Sequence record: OR992645.1
DNA from: Escherichia phage EI-SP-GF
Length of the DNA: 64,000 bases
Strand: one strand, 5' to 3'
In this document: piece after piece, positions 2,276 through 33,181 of the stretch
Position numbering within the stretch: position 1 is the stretch's first letter
Layout: each line of letters opens with the position of its first letter
The notes under the pieces: generated by a model
What the model saw: only the letters and a program-made list of their open reading frames with translations
Database searches by the model: none
What the model was told of the DNA's origin: nothing
Made by a program: the position numbers and the translations under genes

Positions 2276-2626
2276 TTACTGCAACAGTTTTTCAATAGCC
2301 GCTTCCATGCTGCTTGCAACAGCCTGAACTCGGATATTCATCTCTTCTTGGCGGATCAGCTCCTTAAGCTCTTTAACGGTGAATTCTTTAGAGAAACCTT
2401 CCACCATAATCTTGTGCAAGGCTTCTTGCGTGTCTACTTGCAAGAACTTTTCCAGTTTGTTGGCAGAGGCCTCTAAATCGGCCCGAATACGTGGGTCATC
2501 TGTTCGGTTCAGCATTAGGCGTAAGCCATCAAGATTAGTAGAAATAGCGTCTGCATGTTGAGTAACCAACCGTGGCAAAATGAGATCTACAAACTTACTG
2601 GCTAAATCAATACGCTCTTGTGTCAC
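2276..2626 (-). CDS. hypothetical protein (116 aa, GTG start)
   Basis: ORF track; start codon is GTG on inspection; no motif recognised. Confidence 0.35.
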   Translation of the reverse strand: MTQERIDLASKFVDLILPRLVTQHADAISTNLDGLRLMLNRTDDPRIRADLEASANKLEKFLQVDTQEALHKIMVEGFSKEFTVKELKELIRQEEMNIRVQAVASSMEAAIEKLLQ

Positions 2627-2798
2627 TGTTGCACCCCCTCTTCATCTTCATGATATTTCTTTTCACGCTTGTGTTTTTTCTTAAGCTCAAGCGCAATCTC
2701 TTTCTTGTACGCCTTCTTCAAGGCTTTTTTAGCCATTTGGCACCTCCTCTGCTTTCATTACGATAATTATAACCAACTTACCAAAGCTTTGTCAACGA

Positions 2799-3272
2799 TT
2801 AGTCAACCTGAACCCAACTGCCTGCTACCTTTTTAAACATTCTCTGGTTATCACTGCCTCGGAATGGTTTCTTTGTTGGTAAATCTTTTACATACTTGCC
2901 ATCAATGATGATATCAGCCAGCTCAAGAACATCACTAGAGATATGCTCAAATGTGAACCCAGTATACACAAGAATAGTTTTCTTGTCACCAAACTTTTCC
3001 TTAATTCTCCTCATAAGTTTAATAATACCGGGCTCATTATACGTAGCCAAAGGCTCTCCACCAAGCAAAGAAATACCGCATATAGATTCATTGTCCAAAT
3101 CTGACAAAATTCTCTGCAAATCTTCTTCGGTGAATTCTCTTCCCTTATCTTTGGACCAAAATGCTTGATTAAAGCAACCATGACAAGCGTGTGGGCACCC
3201 AGATACCCACAAGGCCGTCCTGAGACCTGGCCCTTCGGTGTAGGATATTTCTGTGTATCCGACAATATTCAT
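2799..3272 (-). CDS. nrdG: anaerobic ribonucleotide reductase activating protein (radical SAM)
   Basis: N-terminal CPHACHGCFN cysteine motif; directly downstream of nrdD. Confidence 0.85.
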   Translation of the reverse strand: MNIVGYTEISYTEGPGLRTALWVSGCPHACHGCFNQAFWSKDKGREFTEEDLQRILSDLDNESICGISLLGGEPLATYNEPGIIKLMRRIKEKFGDKKTILVYTGFTFEHISSDVLELADIIIDGKYVKDLPTKKPFRGSDNQRMFKKVAGSWVQVD

Positions 3273-3385
3273 AAGTACTCCGCATCACATTTAGGACAAT
3301 GCCAAATAAAATCATCCAGTGCCTTGCACCAACGAAGATTGCAATGACAACCACACTTGCAAATTTTATAAATACCTGACGACAT
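3269..3385 (-). CDS. small Cys-rich zinc-ribbon-like protein (38 aa)
   Basis: Hand-translated MSSGIYKICKCGCHCNLRWCKALDDFIWHCPKCDAEYL; stop TGA overlaps nrdG ATG (ATGA); below ORF-track size cutoff. Confidence 0.35.
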   Translation of the reverse strand: MSSGIYKICKCGCHCNLRWCKALDDFIWHCPKCDAEYL

Positions 3386-3448
3386 ACTGCACCTCCTAGT
3401 TTACTGTGTAACAACAATATGCCACATCCTTGTGGCTTTTGTCAAGTA

Positions 3449-4657
3449 TCAGCAACCACAGCTTCCGTAGTGCTTAACCCGTTCTATAACTTCCGCTTGC
3501 TTACCTTTGTTGTAAGGTCGGGAGTTTGGACTGGACAGATACCCAGATACACGTCTAATCACACTGATCGTTCCCTCTTCATGGTTTCCGCACTCTGGGC
3601 ATACAAAGCCTTTAGCTGTTGCACTGAACTCACCAGAGAATCCGCACTTAAGACATTTATCCACAGGTTGGTTAATACCAAAATACATAATGTGTTTATA
3701 CCCGAAATCGACAAGGGATTCCAAAGCATCCAGGTTGTTTTTCAGGTTAGGTGTTTCTATGTATCCAATGTTACCGCCAGAAGAGATCATAGCAAAACCT
3801 TCCTCATACTTCCACTTGTCAAAAGGTGAGCTATTGATCCACACGGGCTGGTGGAAACTGTTGGTAAGGTATTCGTGCTCGTGCTTCAACACTTCAGGAT
3901 ATTCACGATCTAGACATGTTGCAGCCTTATAGCACAAGCTCTCTGAAGGAGTGCCGTACAAGCTGAATGCCAGACCACTTTCTTTTTTGTACCGATCACA
4001 AGCGTCTTTCATGTGCTGAAGGATCCCAAGAGCTAAGGACTTGTCTCCCTCTCTGCCTAAAATCTGGCAGGTTTCATACACACCAATATATCCAATACTT
4101 ATGGAAGCATACCCGTCATAGAAGAGTTTATCAATACTCTCTTCAGGATCCAGGCGAGCAAGAGCTCCTTCACACCACATGATGGGGTTCTGCCCTGCCT
4201 TTGTTCCTTTTAGACGGTTAACCCTTACAAGGTGAGCCTCGTATGCCAGATCCAAGTACTCGTCAAGAACTGCAAAGAAATCAACACCTTCCGTTTTAGC
4301 TTTTGCCGCAATCATTGGTAGGTTAAGGCTAACAACACCTAAGTTAAATCTGCCAAGGTATTTCTCCTCTCCTGTTTCCAAGTCATTGTATTTGCTAAGA
4401 AAACTCCGGCAACCCATGCTTGTGACATTACCTTCTGTTGAACCTGTCACTTTTCTATTCAGTGGTACAGATACGAAGTCAGGATAAATCCGCTCTGCAG
4501 AGCATTCCAGAGCTAATCGTTTCAAATCATAGTTAGGATCCTCGGGGTTCATGTTGATACCCTCCTCCAGGAAGAACAGCACCTTAGGGAACACAGGTGT
4601 GATACGTTCTTCACCAAGACCCATTTTGTGGACTTTCAGGTAGTTTTTGGTAATCAT
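3449..4657 (-). CDS. nrdD: anaerobic ribonucleoside-triphosphate reductase, exon 2 (C-terminal part with glycyl-radical site)
   Basis: C-terminal CPECGN zinc site and RRVSGYL glycyl-radical motif; frame is open up to 4750 so true exon start may lie between 4657 and 4750. Confidence 0.85.
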   Translation of the reverse strand: MITKNYLKVHKMGLGEERITPVFPKVLFFLEEGINMNPEDPNYDLKRLALECSAERIYPDFVSVPLNRKVTGSTEGNVTSMGCRSFLSKYNDLETGEEKYLGRFNLGVVSLNLPMIAAKAKTEGVDFFAVLDEYLDLAYEAHLVRVNRLKGTKAGQNPIMWCEGALARLDPEESIDKLFYDGYASISIGYIGVYETCQILGREGDKSLALGILQHMKDACDRYKKESGLAFSLYGTPSESLCYKAATCLDREYPEVLKHEHEYLTNSFHQPVWINSSPFDKWKYEEGFAMISSGGNIGYIETPNLKNNLDALESLVDFGYKHIMYFGINQPVDKCLKCGFSGEFSATAKGFVCPECGNHEEGTISVIRRVSGYLSSPNSRPYNKGKQAEVIERVKHYGSCGC

Positions 4658-26383: not shown

Positions 26384-26734
26384 ATGAAAGATGGGGATAA
26401 GCTGCTATATCTTAAAGTCCCCCTTGAAATACTGTCTATGTCAAAAGTTTTGAATGACACAACTGGAGAGGTTGTTGTTCTTGACTTGTATGACAAGATC
26501 GTATACTGCTACCTGCACAACTGGTATAAGCTTGGAGGAAATTCACGCTTCACACCCAGCACAAGGAAAATTGCAGCAGATGTTGGGATAAAGAAAACAA
26601 AAGCAGCAGCGTGCGTTAAAACTTTAGAGTGTGCAGGGGTGGTTGAAACATCCACACAAGGGAGAGGTAAAAGATGCACATTTTCCAAAGTTTTGCCACC
26701 AGAAGAAGTTATTCGGATGTCAACAACTGGTTAG
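26384..26734 (+). CDS. putative HTH DNA-binding protein (116 aa)
   Basis: STRKIAADVGIKKTKAAACVKTLECAGVVE resembles a winged-helix/HTH recognition segment. Confidence 0.4.
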   Translation: MKDGDKLLYLKVPLEILSMSKVLNDTTGEVVVLDLYDKIVYCYLHNWYKLGGNSRFTPSTRKIAADVGIKKTKAAACVKTLECAGVVETSTQGRGKRCTFSKVLPPEEVIRMSTTG

Positions 26735-26809
26735 ACCAGTAAAAACTTAAATATCTGTACTATAAGGATTCGTATGTTTTATGTTCGCTCTAGAATAGAG
26801 GTCAGTAAC

Positions 26810-26890
26810 TGTCCGTGATACGGACACTACTGTCCGTCACGCGGACACATCTGCCCGTAATACGGACACTAACTGTCCGTGATACGGACA
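26810..26890. repeat. four tandem 17-bp palindromic operator-like sites (TGTCCG-N5-CGGACA)
   Basis: Copies at 26810-26826, 26831-26847, 26853-26869, 26874-26890; copies 1 and 4 identical, 2 and 3 slightly degenerate; centre-to-centre spacing 21-22 bp. Confidence 0.65.
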
Positions 26891-27395
26891 CATAAAGAAT
26901 ATAACTAAAATAACTAAATAATAAAAAATAAAAGATCTAGTACTTATGGTACTAAAGTACATATACTTAACTTATGTAGAATATACTAGATCCTAAGTAC
27001 CATGTTTTAAATTTATTACTTACTATAGGTAGTGTCGGCCCTTCATTGGCACTCGCCTACGAGGGGCGAGATGCCGGGCCTCCATAGTGCACACAATAAC
27101 AGAAGTGCATACATGCAGGTCTGTTAACATGTGTGGGAGCGAAGCGATAGCGCAGGCCAAAGGCCGAGCACTAATGTGGACCACCGACGAAAGCTTGCCA
27201 GCGCCGTAAGGGGTCGGTTGAGAGCCTCCCGCGCGAGTTTGGATAAAGTTTATGTGTGGAAACTGACAAGAAGGCCCCTAAATCGCTCCACAGCTATATA
27301 AACTATACCAAGTAAGGCAATCGCACCAGTTTGATAGAAAAGCTCGTTACAAAGCGATACAGTTAGTTTTTCTATAACTTGAAGAGGAGTCTGCT

Positions 27396-27974
27396 ATGAG
27401 TTCACGCAAAGATGCCAGTGAAAAGATTGCAAAACGTTATCAGAATGAAGAACAGATGGAGAAAACTTTCAAGTGGAAGCCAGGTTTCCAGCGTAATCAT
27501 TCTAACGCTCGTGATCGTAAGCATCCTGATAAGTGGCTAACACCGCCAAATGATGGCATGCAGGTTGGTGATGAGAAGGAGCTATCACCTGGAAAAGATG
27601 GCAACTACATTCGCACTAAGGACGCTAGTCCAAAGGATGACAGCTATCTTGTAGATAAGGTTCTTAATGGTATTGATGTAGATGTTGACACTACACGGAA
27701 CTTTTTTCTTGGGTGGTATCGCACAGGTTTTTTCGACATCAAGGCCATTCGTCGTGTTTGTGATATTAAAAAGTCTGCATATGATGACGACTCGTTACAT
27801 CGCACACTGAGACAATATTCAGAAAGATATGGTCATCCGGTTATCACTCTTGACGATGTTAACGAAGTGATGTATCATGCAGAGGTTGTTGCAGGCAGAT
27901 TTGGTGATGCATATCTTGATATCCTTTCTGCAAACGATGAGGTAATGTTGAATAAGATTTACTACGAACGTTGA
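27396..27974 (+). CDS. hypothetical protein (192 aa)
   Basis: ORF track; GAGGAG RBS upstream. Confidence 0.45.
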   Translation: MSSRKDASEKIAKRYQNEEQMEKTFKWKPGFQRNHSNARDRKHPDKWLTPPNDGMQVGDEKELSPGKDGNYIRTKDASPKDDSYLVDKVLNGIDVDVDTTRNFFLGWYRTGFFDIKAIRRVCDIKKSAYDDDSLHRTLRQYSERYGHPVITLDDVNEVMYHAEVVAGRFGDAYLDILSANDEVMLNKIYYER

Positions 27975-27984
27975 GGAGAGCTTA

Positions 27985-28173
27985 ATGAACAATCCGGTAG
28001 CAAAGAATTGTAATAAGTTCAACAAGTCTGCAATTCACACTGACAGGAAAAAGAGCTGGTCACCGGACATTGACGAGGAGCTTGAGAATTACTTTGAAGA
28101 TCTGGTTACCAATGCAGGTGAGGTTGCGATTAAAGAATACGCAGACAGGAGGGATAAGGCCGGAATCTGTTGA
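27985..28173 (+). CDS. hypothetical protein (62 aa)
   Basis: ORF track; GAGGAG RBS. Confidence 0.3.
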   Translation: MNNPVAKNCNKFNKSAIHTDRKKSWSPDIDEELENYFEDLVTNAGEVAIKEYADRRDKAGIC

Positions 28174-28198
28174 CAAAAATAATGTTACCTGATAAGAT
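28170..28198 (+). promoter_or_regulatory. sigma70-like promoter (TTGACA-N17-TAAGAT)
   Basis: Hexamers at 28170-28175 and 28193-28198. Confidence 0.4.
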
Positions 28199-28249
28199 CT
28201 GCAATATGATGTGATACAATTTTAACTTACGAGGTCTACAGGTAATGCT

Positions 28250-28492
28250 ATGTTTAAGGTTAAGCTCGTTTTCCGTTCCATGAATGAGGATTATTTAGAA
28301 GATGAAGGTGAATTTCGTGCACTAGATGATGCAATAGATTTTGCCAACGACTTAGCTTGTATGAATACTGGTTATGGGTTATGCTGTTGGGATGGTGGTG
28401 TTCAGATCGGTGATAGCAAGATCTTCTACTTCTACCCTGAGCCTGATAACAAACAAATTAAGTATGTTTTATTTATTTGTGCTTTACAATGA
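28250..28492 (+). CDS. hypothetical protein (80 aa)
   Basis: ORF track. Confidence 0.4.
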   Translation: MFKVKLVFRSMNEDYLEDEGEFRALDDAIDFANDLACMNTGYGLCCWDGGVQIGDSKIFYFYPEPDNKQIKYVLFICALQ

Positions 28493-28780
28493 GGTTGTTT
28501 TCGTGTATCATGATGAATATCCAATTTAAAGATGAGTTTGATGGCTTTATCTCCGGATGCTTTGAAACAGGGTTTGGAGAAGGCTGAGTTCCCCTTAGAG
28601 GGCTTGATAGTGCACCACACTTAAAATGGTAGGGGCAGCCAGCACATGACGATGTGACCCCAGCCAACCTGTAATAAGGTCGAGCCAGAGCGCGGTAATG
28701 GGTATCTGGTAACCCACTTGTTGGGTCTTGCTGGTCCAGGACGCTGGGCAAGTCGCAGGGAATACCACCCTGCGGCGAAC

Positions 28781-28809
28781 TTGACAATCAGTATTTGCCG
28801 TGATAAAAT
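28781..28809 (+). promoter_or_regulatory. sigma70-like promoter (TTGACA-N17-TAAAAT) overlapped by inverted repeat CGTGATA/TATCACG
   Basis: Hexamers at 28781-28786 and 28804-28809; palindrome arms flank the -10. Confidence 0.45.
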
Positions 28810-28837
28810 CCACCTATCACGTGATAATGGAGGAAAC

Positions 28838-29176
28838 ATGGCGGATACAACTAAAAAGCGTCGCCGTAGAGGCAGACCTCTGAAAGAGGAGTCCAACGCC
28901 ATTCAGCTAGAGAAGAACATTCTTGATATGAAGGAATCTTTTATAGCGATGGTTCCAGAAGCTCACAAAGTTTTAAGAGAGCTGATGTTGGACCCGAAAA
29001 CCAAACAAAATATTCGTCAAAGCATTGCAGAGTATGTTCTTGATAAGGCAGACCGAATGCAGGAAGAATATGATGAGATGTTTGGTGAAGAGGAAGAGGT
29101 GGTAGTGGAAGAGGCTGAAAAACCAGCACCTTTTATGCCATTTACCACAGAAATACAGCCTGTTGGCAATAGTTAA
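28838..29176 (+). CDS. hypothetical protein with basic N-terminus and acidic C-terminus (112 aa)
   Basis: Start moved to ATG 28838 with GGAGGAAA RBS; KKRRRRGRPLK AT-hook-like segment. Confidence 0.45.
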   Translation: MADTTKKRRRRGRPLKEESNAIQLEKNILDMKESFIAMVPEAHKVLRELMLDPKTKQNIRQSIAEYVLDKADRMQEEYDEMFGEEEEVVVEEAEKPAPFMPFTTEIQPVGNS

Positions 29177-29272
29177 AATATTTTCTTGACAAACTTTGCC
29201 TAACAGTGTAATATTATAAACATGGTCTCCCACCTTTTCTGGCGGCTCAGGTGTAAAAGAAAGCCACCCAGT

Positions 29273-29344
29273 GCCCTGTTAGCTTAGTGGATAAAGCAGC
29301 GGCCTTCTAAGCCGTTGACACTGGTTCGAGTCCAGTACGGGGTG
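29273..29344 (+). tRNA. tRNA-Arg(TCT)
   Basis: Hand-folded cloverleaf: acceptor GCCCTGT/ACGGGGT, D-stem GCTT/AAGC, anticodon loop CTTCTAA, T-loop TTCGAGT, encoded CCA. Confidence 0.8.
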
Positions 29345-29477
29345 CCAAGTTCTTTTTAATGTAGCTTACTTTAGCAGAGTAAATCTTCGGCAAGTGGCGG
29401 TAACCACTTTACCGATACCTCATAGTTAGTGGTTAGAACACTAGCTATTTTAAAAAGAATTTAAATATTAGTATTTA

Positions 29478-29562
29478 GGTGAGTTAATTCCGTAGGGGTA
29501 GCGGGGCAGACTGTAAATCTGTTATCATTGCGATTCGGGTGGTTCGACTCCATCACTCACCA
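29478..29562 (+). tRNA. tRNA-Tyr(GTA), type II with long variable arm
   Basis: Acceptor GGTGAGT/ACTCACC, anticodon loop CTGTAAA, T-loop TTCGACT, CCA encoded. Confidence 0.75.
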
Positions 29563-29680
29563 CCAAATTTATATTTTTAAATGCATAAATCATACAGATA
29601 ATGGCATTGATATTTATCGTCGTTTATACTAGTCACTAACTGCTCGAAAATCAGTGTCATTATCAGTATTGTTTATAAAA

Positions 29681-29768
29681 GAGGGTAGGGAGCAATGGTG
29701 CTCAAGCGGTCTTGAAAACCGTCCCGTTGAGGATGACTCGATGATGGTTCGATTCCATTATCCTCTGC
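29681..29768 (+). tRNA. tRNA-Ser(TGA), type II
   Basis: Acceptor AGAGGGT/ATCCTCT, anticodon loop CTTGAAA, long variable arm, T-loop TTCGATT, CCA encoded. Confidence 0.7.
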
Positions 29769-29868
29769 CATATTGTTGACCTTGTAATTAAGCGAAAGCC
29801 GGAAGCAGAACCGGATTATCAAATGTTACAGTCGTCATCGCCGACTAGCAACATGGTCAACATACTGA

Positions 29869-29965
29869 GCTAGGTAAGCCCTTTGGCAAGGGCGAGGATT
29901 TTTAATCCTGAAAATAGACGAGGTAGTCGTTGAATACATAGATGGTTCGATTCCATCACCTAGCA
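29869..29965 (+). pseudogene. aberrant tRNA-like element (possible degenerate tRNA-Lys(TTT)-like)
   Basis: Canonical acceptor GCTAGGT/ACCTAGC, D-arm GCCC/GGGC and T-arm GATGG-TTCGATT-CCATC, but 97 nt long with about 30 nt between anticodon-like hairpin and T-arm. Confidence 0.35.
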
Positions 29966-29971
29966 CCTTTT

Positions 29972-30044
29972 GCTGATGTAGCACAATTGGCAGTGCAATT
30001 GATTTGTAATCAATAGGTTGCAGGTTCAAGTCCTGCCATCAGCA
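29972..30044 (+). tRNA. tRNA-Thr(TGT)
   Basis: Complete 73-nt cloverleaf: acceptor GCTGATG/CATCAGC, anticodon stem ATTGA/TCAAT with loop TTTGTAA, T-loop TTCAAGT, CCA encoded. Confidence 0.85.
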
Positions 30045-30048
30045 CCAT

Positions 30049-30120
30049 GGCCCTGTAGCTGGAAGGTTCAAGCAAGCGACTCATAATCGCCAGACGGTGG
30101 TTCAATTCCACCCAGGGCCA
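30049..30120 (+). tRNA. tRNA-Met(CAT) (elongator or Ile2-type)
   Basis: Acceptor GGCCCTG/CAGGGCC, anticodon loop CTCATAA, T-arm GGTGG-TTCAATT-CCACC; starts 1 nt after tRNA-Thr CCA. Confidence 0.8.
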
Positions 30121-30134
30121 CCAAATAATAAATA

Positions 30135-30208
30135 CTCCGCGTAGCTCAGCTTGGTAGAGCGCCTGATTTGGGATCAGGAGGTCGAGTGTTCGAATCACTC
30201 CGTGGAGA
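30135..30208 (+). tRNA. tRNA-Pro(TGG)
   Basis: Acceptor CTCCGCG/CGTGGAG (C1-G72 as in bacterial tRNA-Pro), D-arm AGCTCAGCTTGGTAGAGC, anticodon loop TTTGGGA, T-loop TTCGAAT. Confidence 0.85.
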
Positions 30209-30257
30209 CCACCTTTAGTTATACTTTAAATATATACACACAAAAGGAACCTTTAAA

Positions 30258-31315: not shown

Positions 31316-31740
31316 TGTCTAAGATTTACGGACCGTGTTCTGAAAAGCAGAAGATGATCCTGGAAAATGATGCAGATATTTTGGTAATTGGCGGGGCTGC
31401 AGGATCTGGCAAGTCATTCCTCTTGCAGCTAATGCCGCTTAAAATTATTGATGACCCGCACAGCTCTGTGGTTATGTTCCGAAGAACAACCCCACAGTTG
31501 GAAGGTGAGGGGGGACTATGGCCTAAAGCAGTAGCTATTTATAGTGATCTGCCAGAAAACATTAAGCCAAAGTTTAGAGAGAAGGATCATAAGTTCATTT
31601 TTCCACGGTTTGATCCGAGCACTGGCAAGTGGGACAGGAGCAAAAAGGGAGCTGTTGTAAAATACTGCCACATGGAATATGTCCAAGATAAGCTTAACCA
31701 TCAGGGTTTGGAATACACCATGGTTTGCTTCGATGAGGGT
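31315..31740 (+). CDS. terminase large subunit, exon 1 (ATPase Walker A and B)
   Basis: Walker A GGAAGSGKS and Walker B MVCFDEG; ORF stops immediately after Walker B at the intron edge. Confidence 0.8.
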
Positions 31741-32092
31741 TAATTTGTAGCTCTCGTAAAACCTCCCTAATTGCGGGGAAATCTTTATTATTGACACCAC
31801 CAACCTGTCATGGTAACATAATAGAGGCTTCGAAGAGAGATCGAAGGTATGGTAACAGTGTGTTAATTTAGATAATCCGCAGCGAAGCATCCGAGAGGAT
31901 GAACGTTCAACGACTAGTCGAAAGACGTAGAATCAAGCGATTCGAAACGGGAGGGTAAGCGGTTGTTGTCGCTTATAAGATATAGTCTGGTCTGCATGGA
32001 GACATGCAGCTGCCTGAAAATGGCGGGGCAAGACTAGCGACCTTGCCCGAACATGAACGACACAATTCGAATGGGAGCAGATAGACTATCTG
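31741..32092 (+). ncRNA. group I intron (ORF-less) interrupting terminase large subunit; 3' boundary approximate (32057-32092)
   Basis: Canonical P/Q/R/S elements: AATTGCGGGGAAA (31769-31781), AATCCGCAGC (31874-31883), GTTCAACGACTAGTCG (31905-31920), AAGATATAGTCTGG (31977-31990); exon 1 ends with U. Confidence 0.7.
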
Positions 32093-33181
32093 ATGTCTCG
32101 TCTGCGATCTCAGTCAAAGTATCCATCAAGAATGGTTATCAGCTGTAACCCCGATTCAGAACACATGCTTGCCAAACTGGTTAGATGGTGGTTGGACGAT
32201 GAAGGGTATCCAGATCCGGAGAAATGCGGTAAGAAAAGATATTTTATCCGACGCGACGGTGAATTTATCTGGGGAGACTCTAAAGAAGAGTTGATAGAGA
32301 AATACACCACGGTTAACGGACTTGGCGTAGAGATCAAGCCAAGACCGTTGTCATTCTCGTTCATAGGCGCAACAATATTCGATAATCCTGTCTGTTTGAG
32401 AGACAACCCAGAATACCTTGCTTTCCTCGAAGGTCTACCAGAGCTGGAAAAAGCTCAGCTTCTCCATGGTAACTGGTTTGCAAAGCCTGAGGGTGCAAAC
32501 TATTTTCAAAGATCTTTCCTTCGTGATGCCGATAGAGTACCTCTTGGGTCAGTATCTTGCAGGGCATGGGATAAGGCAGGAACCGAGAGAACTTCCGGTA
32601 ATAAATTTCCTGACTTTACTGCCAGTATTAAGGTAAGTAAAGATAGCGACGGCTTTTATTACCTGTCCGGTGATTATTGTCCTGAGAACGTGGATGACGG
32701 GAGGTATTCCACAGGTCTGGAAGGCAAGTTCTGTAAAAAGGCTGGTGAACGAGATGTGATCATCAGGAAACAGGCGCAGTTCGATGGTGATGATTGCATA
32801 ATCGTCTTCTCTGTGGACCCAGGGCAGGCAGGTAAGAGTGAGTTCTTAACCTCCTCCAGATCCTTGCTTGCCGAAGGGTTCAGGGTTGAAGAAGACCCAA
32901 TGCCTTCCAACAAGTCTAAACTGACAAGGTTCTCACCTTTTGCCAATCTTGCCCAACAAGGAATGGTGAGGATTGTAAAATCCAGTTTCCATCCTGATAC
33001 TCTGGAAGCATTTCTGACTGAACTTGAAAAATTCAACGGGGAAAGATCAACATTTAACAGAAAAGACGACTGGGCCGACTGTGTAGCTTCTGCGATTAAT
33101 TTCCTAGAGAAAGAGGAGGTAGCACTTCCTTGTGTGATTCCATCAATCTCATCACCTTCTATGTTCAAGCGTTTTATCTAA
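32093..33181 (+). CDS. terminase large subunit, exon 2 (nuclease domain)
   Basis: Continues terminase after the intron in a different frame; frame open from 32057, so exon may start up to 36 nt upstream of ATG 32093. Confidence 0.75.
   Translation: MSRLRSQSKYPSRMVISCNPDSEHMLAKLVRWWLDDEGYPDPEKCGKKRYFIRRDGEFIWGDSKEELIEKYTTVNGLGVEIKPRPLSFSFIGATIFDNPVCLRDNPEYLAFLEGLPELEKAQLLHGNWFAKPEGANYFQRSFLRDADRVPLGSVSCRAWDKAGTERTSGNKFPDFTASIKVSKDSDGFYYLSGDYCPENVDDGRYSTGLEGKFCKKAGERDVIIRKQAQFDGDDCIIVFSVDPGQAGKSEFLTSSRSLLAEGFRVEEDPMPSNKSKLTRFSPFANLAQQGMVRIVKSSFHPDTLEAFLTELEKFNGERSTFNRKDDWADCVASAINFLEKEEVALPCVIPSISSPSMFKRFI

Follow-up and report, generated by a model that had tools for sequence, protein, structure and literature searches.

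What is encoded in the short stretch between two genes just ahead of the tRNA cluster of rV5-like phages? We took up this question in a window of 64,000 nucleotides from Escherichia phage EI-SP-GF (OR992645.1; one strand, 5' to 3'). The window belongs to an rV5-like Vequintavirus: over positions 28200-28900 it shares 99.9% identity with Escherichia phage ECP26, and 118 records match this part at 95% identity or more. Positions 28493-28837 form a gap without gene annotation in the rV5 reference, between ORF75/gp071 (28250-28492) and ORF74 (28838-29176); the sole feature annotated inside it in the rV5 record (NC_011041) is a sigma70 promoter, P74, and about 430 nt downstream begins a tRNA cluster whose first member is a tRNA-Arg. 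An earlier reading of the sequence alone (the original prediction) proposed that the gap may encode a structured RNA or a processing or attenuation signal. Our comparisons indicate that the region encodes a member of a widespread and apparently undescribed family of phage RNAs, which is present also in T4.

The features that first drew attention to the gap are not those that carry this conclusion. Its GC enrichment is real, amounting to 0.47-0.55 across 28500-28899, with flanking values in 200-nt intervals of 0.37-0.42 from 27900 to 28599 and 0.39-0.44 from 28800 to 29299, and a TTGACA -35 hexamer does lie at 28781-28786. The perfect 7-bp hairpin CGCAGGG-AATACCA-CCCTGCG exists as well, although it occupies 28754-28774, nine bases to the left of the reported 28763-28783, and does not abut the -35 hexamer, 6 nt (GCGAAC) intervening between them. 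The open reading frames (ORFs) of the gap had been called start-less; start codons are present, in ORFs of 30-104 amino acids on both strands, and coding sequences (CDSs) of 32 aa (+) and 72 aa (-) are annotated here in some GenBank records. By itself the hairpin is unremarkable against chance: the window contains 51 perfect hairpins of at least 7 bp, as against 24 +/- 6 in composition-preserving shuffles, and the folding z-scores of the whole region (-1.87 on the + strand, -1.27 on the - strand) are only marginally better than those of shuffles. The signal above chance consists of conservation and covariation, and it is centred about 80 nt upstream of the hairpin. The structured-RNA half of the proposal stands, on a conserved family, covarying helices and a model match; the attenuation half falls, there being no U-tract after the hairpin. 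The hairpin that had been cited as evidence is peripheral, a lineage-specific 3' appendage with an invariant stem and no covariation.

Distribution of the family

A sensitive blastn search with 28480-28840 returned the 118 rV5-like records and about 850 others, nearly all of them T4-like phages, which match only the 45 nt of 28660-28704, at 91-93% identity. In RB18 and WG01 the match lies on the coding strand in a non-coding gap of about 150 nt directly upstream of vs.8, which encodes a terminase-ATPase-like protein (2026 preprint, 10.64898/2026.04.30.721860), and phage T4 itself carries the core of the element in its denV-vs.8 gap. IMG/VR and metagenomes, scanned by pattern, yielded additional lineages: three T4-type variants, of which one has two tandem copies; rV5-B, a sister lineage of rV5 with identical gene order; a divergent rV5-like contig, L242; N4-like contigs; and the unclassified L070, L136, L146, L232, L263, L275 and L282. 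An N4-like copy occurs in Klebsiella phage KpCHEMY26 (Schitoviridae), within a 1-kb unannotated stretch past an 11-tRNA cluster.

Membership was judged with a covariance model, R1, built from an alignment (A3) of 48-49 columns that is anchored by sequence identity alone and holds 28 non-rV5 sequences and no rV5-like member. Against the 64-kb window R1 gives a single strong match, at 28659-28706 on the + strand (66.6 bits, E=2.5e-19), so that the copy in the window is recognized significantly by a model that lacks its own lineage; the next-best match in the window (13.3 bits, E=0.089, at 32434-32480) is probably due to chance. Over the fetched loci R1 gives 82 matches of 37-73 bits, with coding look-alikes rejected. 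As judged from these matches, the comparison shows a family common to rV5-like, T4-like, N4-like and uncultured phages.

Searches elsewhere were negative. In 185,579 bacterial and archaeal genomes the core pattern matched 23 times, which is about the number that we estimate for chance, and none of these matches passed R1; for this set we rejected bacterial chromosomal copies. An Rfam scan had also been suggested, and Rfam 15, searched at gathering thresholds and at E up to 10 with 28150-29300 of the window, 2380-2680 of RB18 and KpCHEMY26, gave no match at the element, because the RNA family is absent from Rfam; a gathering scan of the window found only tRNAs and a group I intron, all away from the element. 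In both ARAGORN and Rfam the tRNA calls begin at 29273, with none at the element. We found no description of the RNA in the searchable literature, and it may be among the unnamed candidates of large viral RNA surveys.

T4 has one of the best-studied genomes, yet the element is unannotated there, and the T4 record draws the vs.8 frame across it: in NC_000866 (L148), at 64793-64912 on the minus strand, the first 40 codons of vs.8 (219 aa) overlie the RNA. Since other T4-like phages start vs.8 at a downstream ATG and have stop codons in or after the RNA, the vs.8 start in T4 is probably mis-called. The model and its coordinates would correct the annotation of several hundred phage records.

Three groups of records deserve separate mention. 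In KpCHEMY26 (L233), positions 3335-4337 hold the RNA inside a long stem, together with further units that have similar stem sequences and a tmRNA-like segment; the latter scores 33.7 bits against Rfam tmRNA_permuted, which is below threshold, carries a tag reading ANDDVVLMAA*, and is not called by ARAGORN. Escherichia phage Av-05 (L022, Vequintavirinae) has, at 2588-3120, both a vs.8 homolog and the RNA in its T4-type form, from which we conclude that the module of RNA and vs.8 has moved between T4-like phages and relatives of rV5. Eighteen records labelled 'Campylobacter phage' (MG0656xx; with C. jejuni or Campylobacter entered as host) share 96-98% identity with the rV5-like region and are probably mislabelled or contaminant.

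Fold and covariation of the core

The core comprises 79 nt (28632-28710, + strand) that we predict to form a three-way junction closed by a pseudoknot. P1 pairs GGGG (28632-28635) with CCCC (28658-28661) and encloses J1/2 (28636-28642) and an inserted hairpin, P2 (CACAU 28643-28647, loop GACG 28648-28651, AUGUG 28652-28656). P4 (CCA 28664-28666 with UGG 28699-28701) closes the three-way junction, 28664-28701, which holds P3 (ACCU 28667-28670, loop GUAAUA, AGGU 28677-28680) and P5 (GCC 28684-28686, AGA, G 28690, bulged C 28691, GC 28692-28693) together with the junction strands CGA (28681-28683) and GGUAA (28694-28698). The pseudoknot would pair GCCAG (28638-28642), within J1/2, with CUGGU (28706-28710), and the CUGG of its 3' strand is retained in all rV5-type variants despite indels immediately upstream.

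Across the family the junction follows the near-invariant motif ACCU-GUAAUA-AGGU-CGA-[GCC nnn G n GC]-GGUAA. The window reads ACCUGUAAUAAGGUCGA at 28667-28683 (P3 and CGA), where the columns of A3 are invariant or at least 90% conserved, and GCCAGAGCGCGGUAA at 28684-28698 (P5 and GGUAA). P3 is an invariant ACCU/AGGU with a G-U-R-A-N-A loop, and P5 is a mini-hairpin of the form G-C-C/nnn/G-(n)-G-C. The innermost pair of P4 is AU, UA, UG or CG in different members, P1, which may or may not enclose a P2 hairpin, has 4-7 bp with an internal loop that supplies the 5' strand of the pseudoknot, and a spacer of 3-10 nt lies between the junction and the 3' strand of the pseudoknot.

A plain MAFFT alignment with RNAalifold on the whole element misaligned the variable 5' domain and recovered P3 alone; it was replaced by A2, a full alignment fitted by hand, and we relied on tests that are independent of A2, namely the sequence-anchored A3 and self-versus-cross helix tests. 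In A3 the innermost P4 pair is AU in 15, UA in 5, UG in 4 and CG in 3 sequences, and the middle P5 pair is CG in 26 and GC in 2 (45 and 3 in A5, a model-aligned set of 82 sequences). The covariation score of A3 was reached by none of 500 shuffles and by no slid register, and A5 agrees. Compensatory changes turn a C-G pair of P5 into G-C in L242, L275 and L282 and into U-A in L138b, and P1 and P2 are swapped for other complementary pairs, such as GGAAC/GUUCC, GGGAA/UUCCC, GGGAG/CUCCC, AAAGG/CCUUU, AAAGC/GCUUU, AAAGA/UCUUU and UGAGUG/CACUCA. The self-versus-cross test compares the best helix formed by a member's own two strands with helices formed with strands of other lineages (Wilcoxon); it gives p=5e-5 for P1 (22 distinct helices) and p=4e-5 for the pseudoknot (20 lineages), for which lineages use pairs as different as GCCAG/CUGGU, UGAGG/CCUCA, AAACCA/UGGUUU, AAACCG/CGGUUU, CACAC/GUGUG and CGGAA/UUCCG. 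The covarying elements are P1, P2, P4, P5 and the pseudoknot. In both A3 and A5 the G-U pairs fit only the + strand, and we therefore place the RNA on that strand. Taken together, the comparative evidence indicates a well-supported fold, in which the pseudoknot that joins the P1 internal loop to the 3' tail is probable.

The way in which the region diverges from rV5-B agrees with this fold. Identity between the window and rV5-B is 93% in the 5' module that precedes the core, 53% in the P1-P2 domain, whose pairing is kept, 93% in the junction core and 47% in the 3' module, and the flanking genes are 68-69% identical; such a mosaic, in which junctions are kept and stems have diverged yet remain paired, is as expected for an RNA. 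The minus-strand frames, including the annotated 72-aa CDS, are reduced to pieces of at most 44 aa in rV5-B and are shifted by indels or fused in L242, frames break or shift in L204 and L242, and in 15 of 16 T4-like members the vs.8 frame is interrupted by an in-frame stop inside or after the core. From these alignments, the comparison shows that reading frames across the RNA are not conserved.

Mode of action and its alternatives

From these observations, we hypothesize that the segment encodes, on the + strand, a structured non-coding RNA that is stable, is produced together with the phage tRNAs and works in trans. We put the probability of this reading at roughly 0.6, which makes it the most likely one, ahead of a cis-acting leader and, in third place, a ribozyme. 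The RNA would be transcribed early by host RNA polymerase, possibly from P75 (28170-28198) or from a candidate promoter at 28483-28511 (TTTACA-17-TATCAT, + strand), which was found by consensus scan only and has 10 of 12 matches; the latter site is not conserved in rV5-B, where a TTGACA-16-TATACT promoter directly ahead of the RNA would be dedicated to it. The core would close by the pseudoknot described above, and the RNA would accumulate as a discrete stable species alongside the phage tRNAs and act in trans, with its invariant junction binding either a widely conserved cellular component of the translation or RNA-processing machinery or some factor aimed at that machinery.

Several features of the loci together suggest a discrete RNA acting in trans: the promoter in rV5-B; an intrinsic terminator about 35 nt past the pseudoknot in L070 and a terminator-like end in L146; the stem of about 20 bp that encloses the N4-like copies and resembles those cut by RNase III, which presumably cuts it here too; downstream genes that, outside the T4-like phages, are unrelated between lineages; and placement on the tRNA strand. 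The last is seen at 12 non-T4 loci (L070, L131, L133, L134, L140, L144, L173, L183, L199, L232, L263 and L282), where tRNA genes are no farther than about 1.2 kb from the RNA, and mostly no farther than 400 nt; in L199 and L232 the RNA lies within or immediately after a tRNA array. No shared neighbouring gene was found among the environmental members. ORF74 and gp071 are confined to rV5-like phages, and ORF74, which always stands just after the RNA, is unrelated to vs.8; outside T4-like loci only Av-05 has a vs.8 homolog, there is none in the window, and we reject either protein as an obligate partner. As ORF74 has its own promoter, P74, downstream of the RNA, it is unlikely to be regulated by the RNA; and since there is no + strand terminator-like site in 27900-29400 and P74 follows the RNA, the element is not an attenuator of ORF74.

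The conservation pattern bears on the partner. About 30 nt are near-invariant across T4-like, rV5-like, N4-like and uncultured phages, while vs.8 falls to 37% identity, which argues for strong selection on the RNA, and such selection points to a partner or a chemistry common to many hosts. That the near-invariant nucleotides of the junction are unpaired across phage families likewise suggests a conserved partner or chemistry. The recurring placement in or beside tRNA clusters bears on why phages carry tRNA clusters and orphan stable RNAs.

The nearest functional analogues, judged by likeness of setting, would be the T4 stable RNAs species 1 and 2 (rnaC and rnaD; NC_000866) and the ROOL and GOLLD RNAs, none of which is related to the element. 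Species 1 and 2 are likewise small structured phage RNAs encoded with tRNA genes, and are presumably cut out of tRNA transcripts; they are not homologous, however, as the family model matches T4 only in the denV-vs.8 gap, and they have tRNA-like 3' parts, whereas the element of rV5 and T4 is a pseudoknotted three-way junction. ROOL and GOLLD are structured RNAs of phages and prophages, of obscure role, often found beside tRNA genes and 500-800 nt long. They differ from the element in being Rfam families and far longer; its core is about 80 nt and has no Rfam match at E up to 10.

A number of observations weigh against this reading or its foundations. The 99.8% pairing in A2 arises by construction. 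In folding energy the core has no advantage over shuffled sequences (z=-0.54 for the window copy, +0.40 for that of T4 and -0.72 for the N4-like one), and as these scores are not significant we relied on covariation instead. The pseudoknot is weak, with 3 bp, in T4-type A, and the outer pairs of P4 are often open, P4 being 74-75% paired overall. There is no terminator in the window, and transcripts may read into ORF74. In T4-like phages the RNA is always immediately 5' of vs.8 with an extra conserved 3' module, which looks cis-regulatory. We stress, finally, that the trans-acting mode and the partner are what we infer from these patterns.

It is possible, though we regard it as doubtful, that the element is the first representative of a functional class that is itself new, either a mimic or decoy made with the phage tRNAs or a new class of ribozyme or riboswitch. 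As a mimic, it would copy some universally conserved part of the translation machinery with its invariant junction and P3 loop, and would trap or block a host factor, such as a modification enzyme or a defence nuclease directed at RNA. One candidate for the imitated piece would be the 530 loop (helix 18) of 16S rRNA, with which the element shares C-N-A-[G-C...G-C]-G-G-U-A-A-U, that is, a small hairpin followed by GGUAAU. When the rV5 element is aligned locally with the E. coli rrn operon, it is the 530 loop that scores highest, at 23 against a shuffle maximum of 25; the flanking helices of helix 18 and its 505-507/524-526 pseudoknot are not reproduced in the element. As that score lies within the shuffles, and a resemblance to GGUCGAG...GCGCGG of 23S rRNA is likewise unsupported, we set rRNA mimicry aside. 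A second candidate would be the anticodon loop, with U-G-U, of tRNAs of the queuosine family: U-G-U is retained in the P3 loop, which in the N4-like members reads CUGUAAA and resembles these anticodon loops. We treat both resemblances as leads only.

The strongest competitor of a trans-acting RNA is a cis-acting, riboswitch-like leader, in which the junction would be an aptamer controlling vs.8 in T4-like phages and ORF74 here by read-through; we consider it unlikely as the general reading, yet for T4-like phages a cis-regulatory role is a serious rival. In every T4-like lineage the RNA stands directly 5' of vs.8, even where the vs.8 protein identity is 37-45%, and the conserved T4-like 3' module (AUGGA..GCCAnGGAAnGGCCC) reaches the vs.8 ribosome-binding site. 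The succession of RNA, terminator and gene in L070 is the layout of a transcriptional switch, and a tight pseudoknotted junction with invariant unpaired nucleotides is aptamer-like. The compactness of the junction and, in T4-like phages, the fixed place 5' of vs.8 are thus held in common with riboswitch aptamers. The association with one gene that characterizes riboswitches holds in T4-like phages and not elsewhere, however: other copies are free-standing or lie in tRNA clusters, many of them within or next to a tRNA array and not followed by a coding gene, and the N4-like copies are enclosed in a long stem of their own. Further, a strong predicted promoter separates the RNA from ORF74 in rV5-like phages, and no Rfam riboswitch matches.

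A self-cleaving ribozyme, or another processing module that cuts polycistronic tRNA or mRNA transcripts, is distinctly less probable still. Along the sequence come P1 (5' side), the pseudoknot (5' side), a hairpin, P1 (3' side), a further hairpin domain and the pseudoknot (3' side), the same order as in the ribozymes resembling hepatitis delta virus (HDV), whose nested double-pseudoknot arrangement the element shares; the phage 'theta' ribozymes of this kind also adjoin tRNAs, as the RNA does at many loci. Its intercistronic position in T4 and its invariant unpaired core fit such a role as well. HDV-like ribozymes are defined by a P1.1 helix formed from an L3 of 6-8 nt, a conserved C in J4/2 and an obligatory P3 hairpin. 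In the element the P2 loop has 4 nt (GACG), so that P1.1 cannot form; the equivalent of J4/2 reads GUAU, GUAAAUA, UUUACAUA or AGU and has no conserved C; and the equivalent of the P3 hairpin is absent in the N4-like members, L232 and L146. No covariance model of an Rfam ribozyme family matches at E up to 10. We therefore reject an HDV-like identity, the topology of which fits.

We give very little weight to the view that the gap is an ordinary promoter region, with a chance GC-rich hairpin beside P74 or a site that acts at the level of DNA. Chance alone would give about 24 such hairpins in the window, the stem shows no covariation, and operator-like GTGATA/TATCAC half-sites lie at P74; this view leaves unexplained the identity of 28660-28704 across phage families, the model match, the covariation and the strand-specific G-U pairs, and for the core it is already contradicted. 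Least credible of all is that the 72-aa minus-strand ORF (28595-28813) or another of the small annotated frames is a real gene, since, although ORFs with start codons occur on both strands and phage NHEP1 and other records annotate 3-4 hypothetical proteins, the frames are broken in rV5-B and shifted or fused in L242, conservation is highest in the helix junctions while the helices covary, the same core lies within non-coding gaps of T4-like and N4-like phages, and the G-U pairs are compatible only with a + strand RNA.

Modules specific to rV5 and the surrounding locus

The candidate full-length RNA of the rV5 type would span about 195 nt, 28586-28780 on the + strand, and comprise a 5' module, the core and three 3' hairpins. 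We infer its ends from the rV5-B promoter directly upstream of the 5' module and from the next promoter, which starts at 28781; the block is kept in the 118 rV5-like records (at least 95% identity) and in the divergent L242. The Vequintavirus-specific 5' module (28591-28631, + strand) consists of CCCC-U-UAGAGGGCUUGAUAGUGC followed by an ACCA...UGGU hairpin. Its motif occurs once in the window, and rV5-B has a second copy 3' of the core. Folding does not support a structure for it (z=+1.23), and we rejected it as a mobile motif, as matches outside rV5-like contigs fall in coding sequence.

The 3' module folds with z=-2.34 (28717-28780). Hairpin Ha (28712-28726, + strand; ACCCA-CUUGU-UGGGU) is specific to the rV5 lineage. 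Its outer pair changes from A-U to U-A in L242 (UCCCA...UGGGA), a compensatory exchange, and it is deleted in L223, which suggests that it is dispensable for the core. Hb (28734-28749, + strand; GUCCAG, loop GACG, CUGGGC) reads GCUCAG/CUGAGC in L242, where a C-G pair becomes U-A and a U.G pair becomes C-G. It has the same GACG tetraloop as P2; hairpins with this loop are not enriched genome-wide (5 against about 4 expected). Hc (28752-28776, + strand) is the hairpin of the original prediction, with 7 perfect bp at 28754-28774 and 9 bp when G-U pairs are included. Its stem is invariant among rV5-type variants while its loop reads AAUACCA, AACACCA or AAUGCCA, and it is absent from rV5-B. It is followed by GCGAACUUGACA, which holds no U-run, and a plausible role for it is that of a 3' stabilising stem of the RNA, neither a terminator nor an attenuator.

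Downstream of the RNA, P74 (28781-28809, + strand; TTGACA-17-TAAAAT) is a predicted sigma70-type promoter for ORF74 with 11 of 12 matches and a TG before the -10; it is the best promoter-like site in the region, and its -35 is conserved in rV5-B. Operator-like half-sites, GTGATA (28800-28805), TATCAC (28815-28820) and GTGATA (28821-28826), overlap its -10 and the leader, which suggests repressor control of ORF74. ORF74 itself (28838-29176) encodes 112 aa (PHROG 3330), with an arginine-rich, AT-hook-like N-terminal KKRRRRGRP and an acidic end.

Upstream, and outside the RNA, lies a possible 32-aa ORF (28489-28587, + strand), which overlaps the gp071 stop codon (ATGA). It is annotated in phage NHEP1 and matches PHROG 6828 (E=5.5e-9); it is identical in L242 and truncated to 8 aa (MKDEFDGF*) in rV5-B, where only the KDEFDGF piece is kept. 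Farther upstream, just after a 'replication initiation protein' gene (26384-26734), positions 26790-27300 contain four inverted-repeat units (CTGTCCGTGATACGGACAC-like), then an AT-rich tract and a GC-rich stretch, and are conserved only in rV5-like phages. This segment has the look of an iteron or origin region, and probably corresponds to the first of the two GC-rich segments counted in the original prediction.

Two further observations concern the sequence downstream. The group I intron found by Rfam (31731-32009, 84 bits) lies inside the terminase large-subunit gene, which the rV5 record joins from three pieces. In the tRNA cluster, calls within 29273-30211 disagree: the Rfam tRNA at 29478-29562, given as Tyr in the rV5 record, is missed by ARAGORN, which in turn calls a 99-nt tRNA with a 4-base anticodon at 29869-29967.

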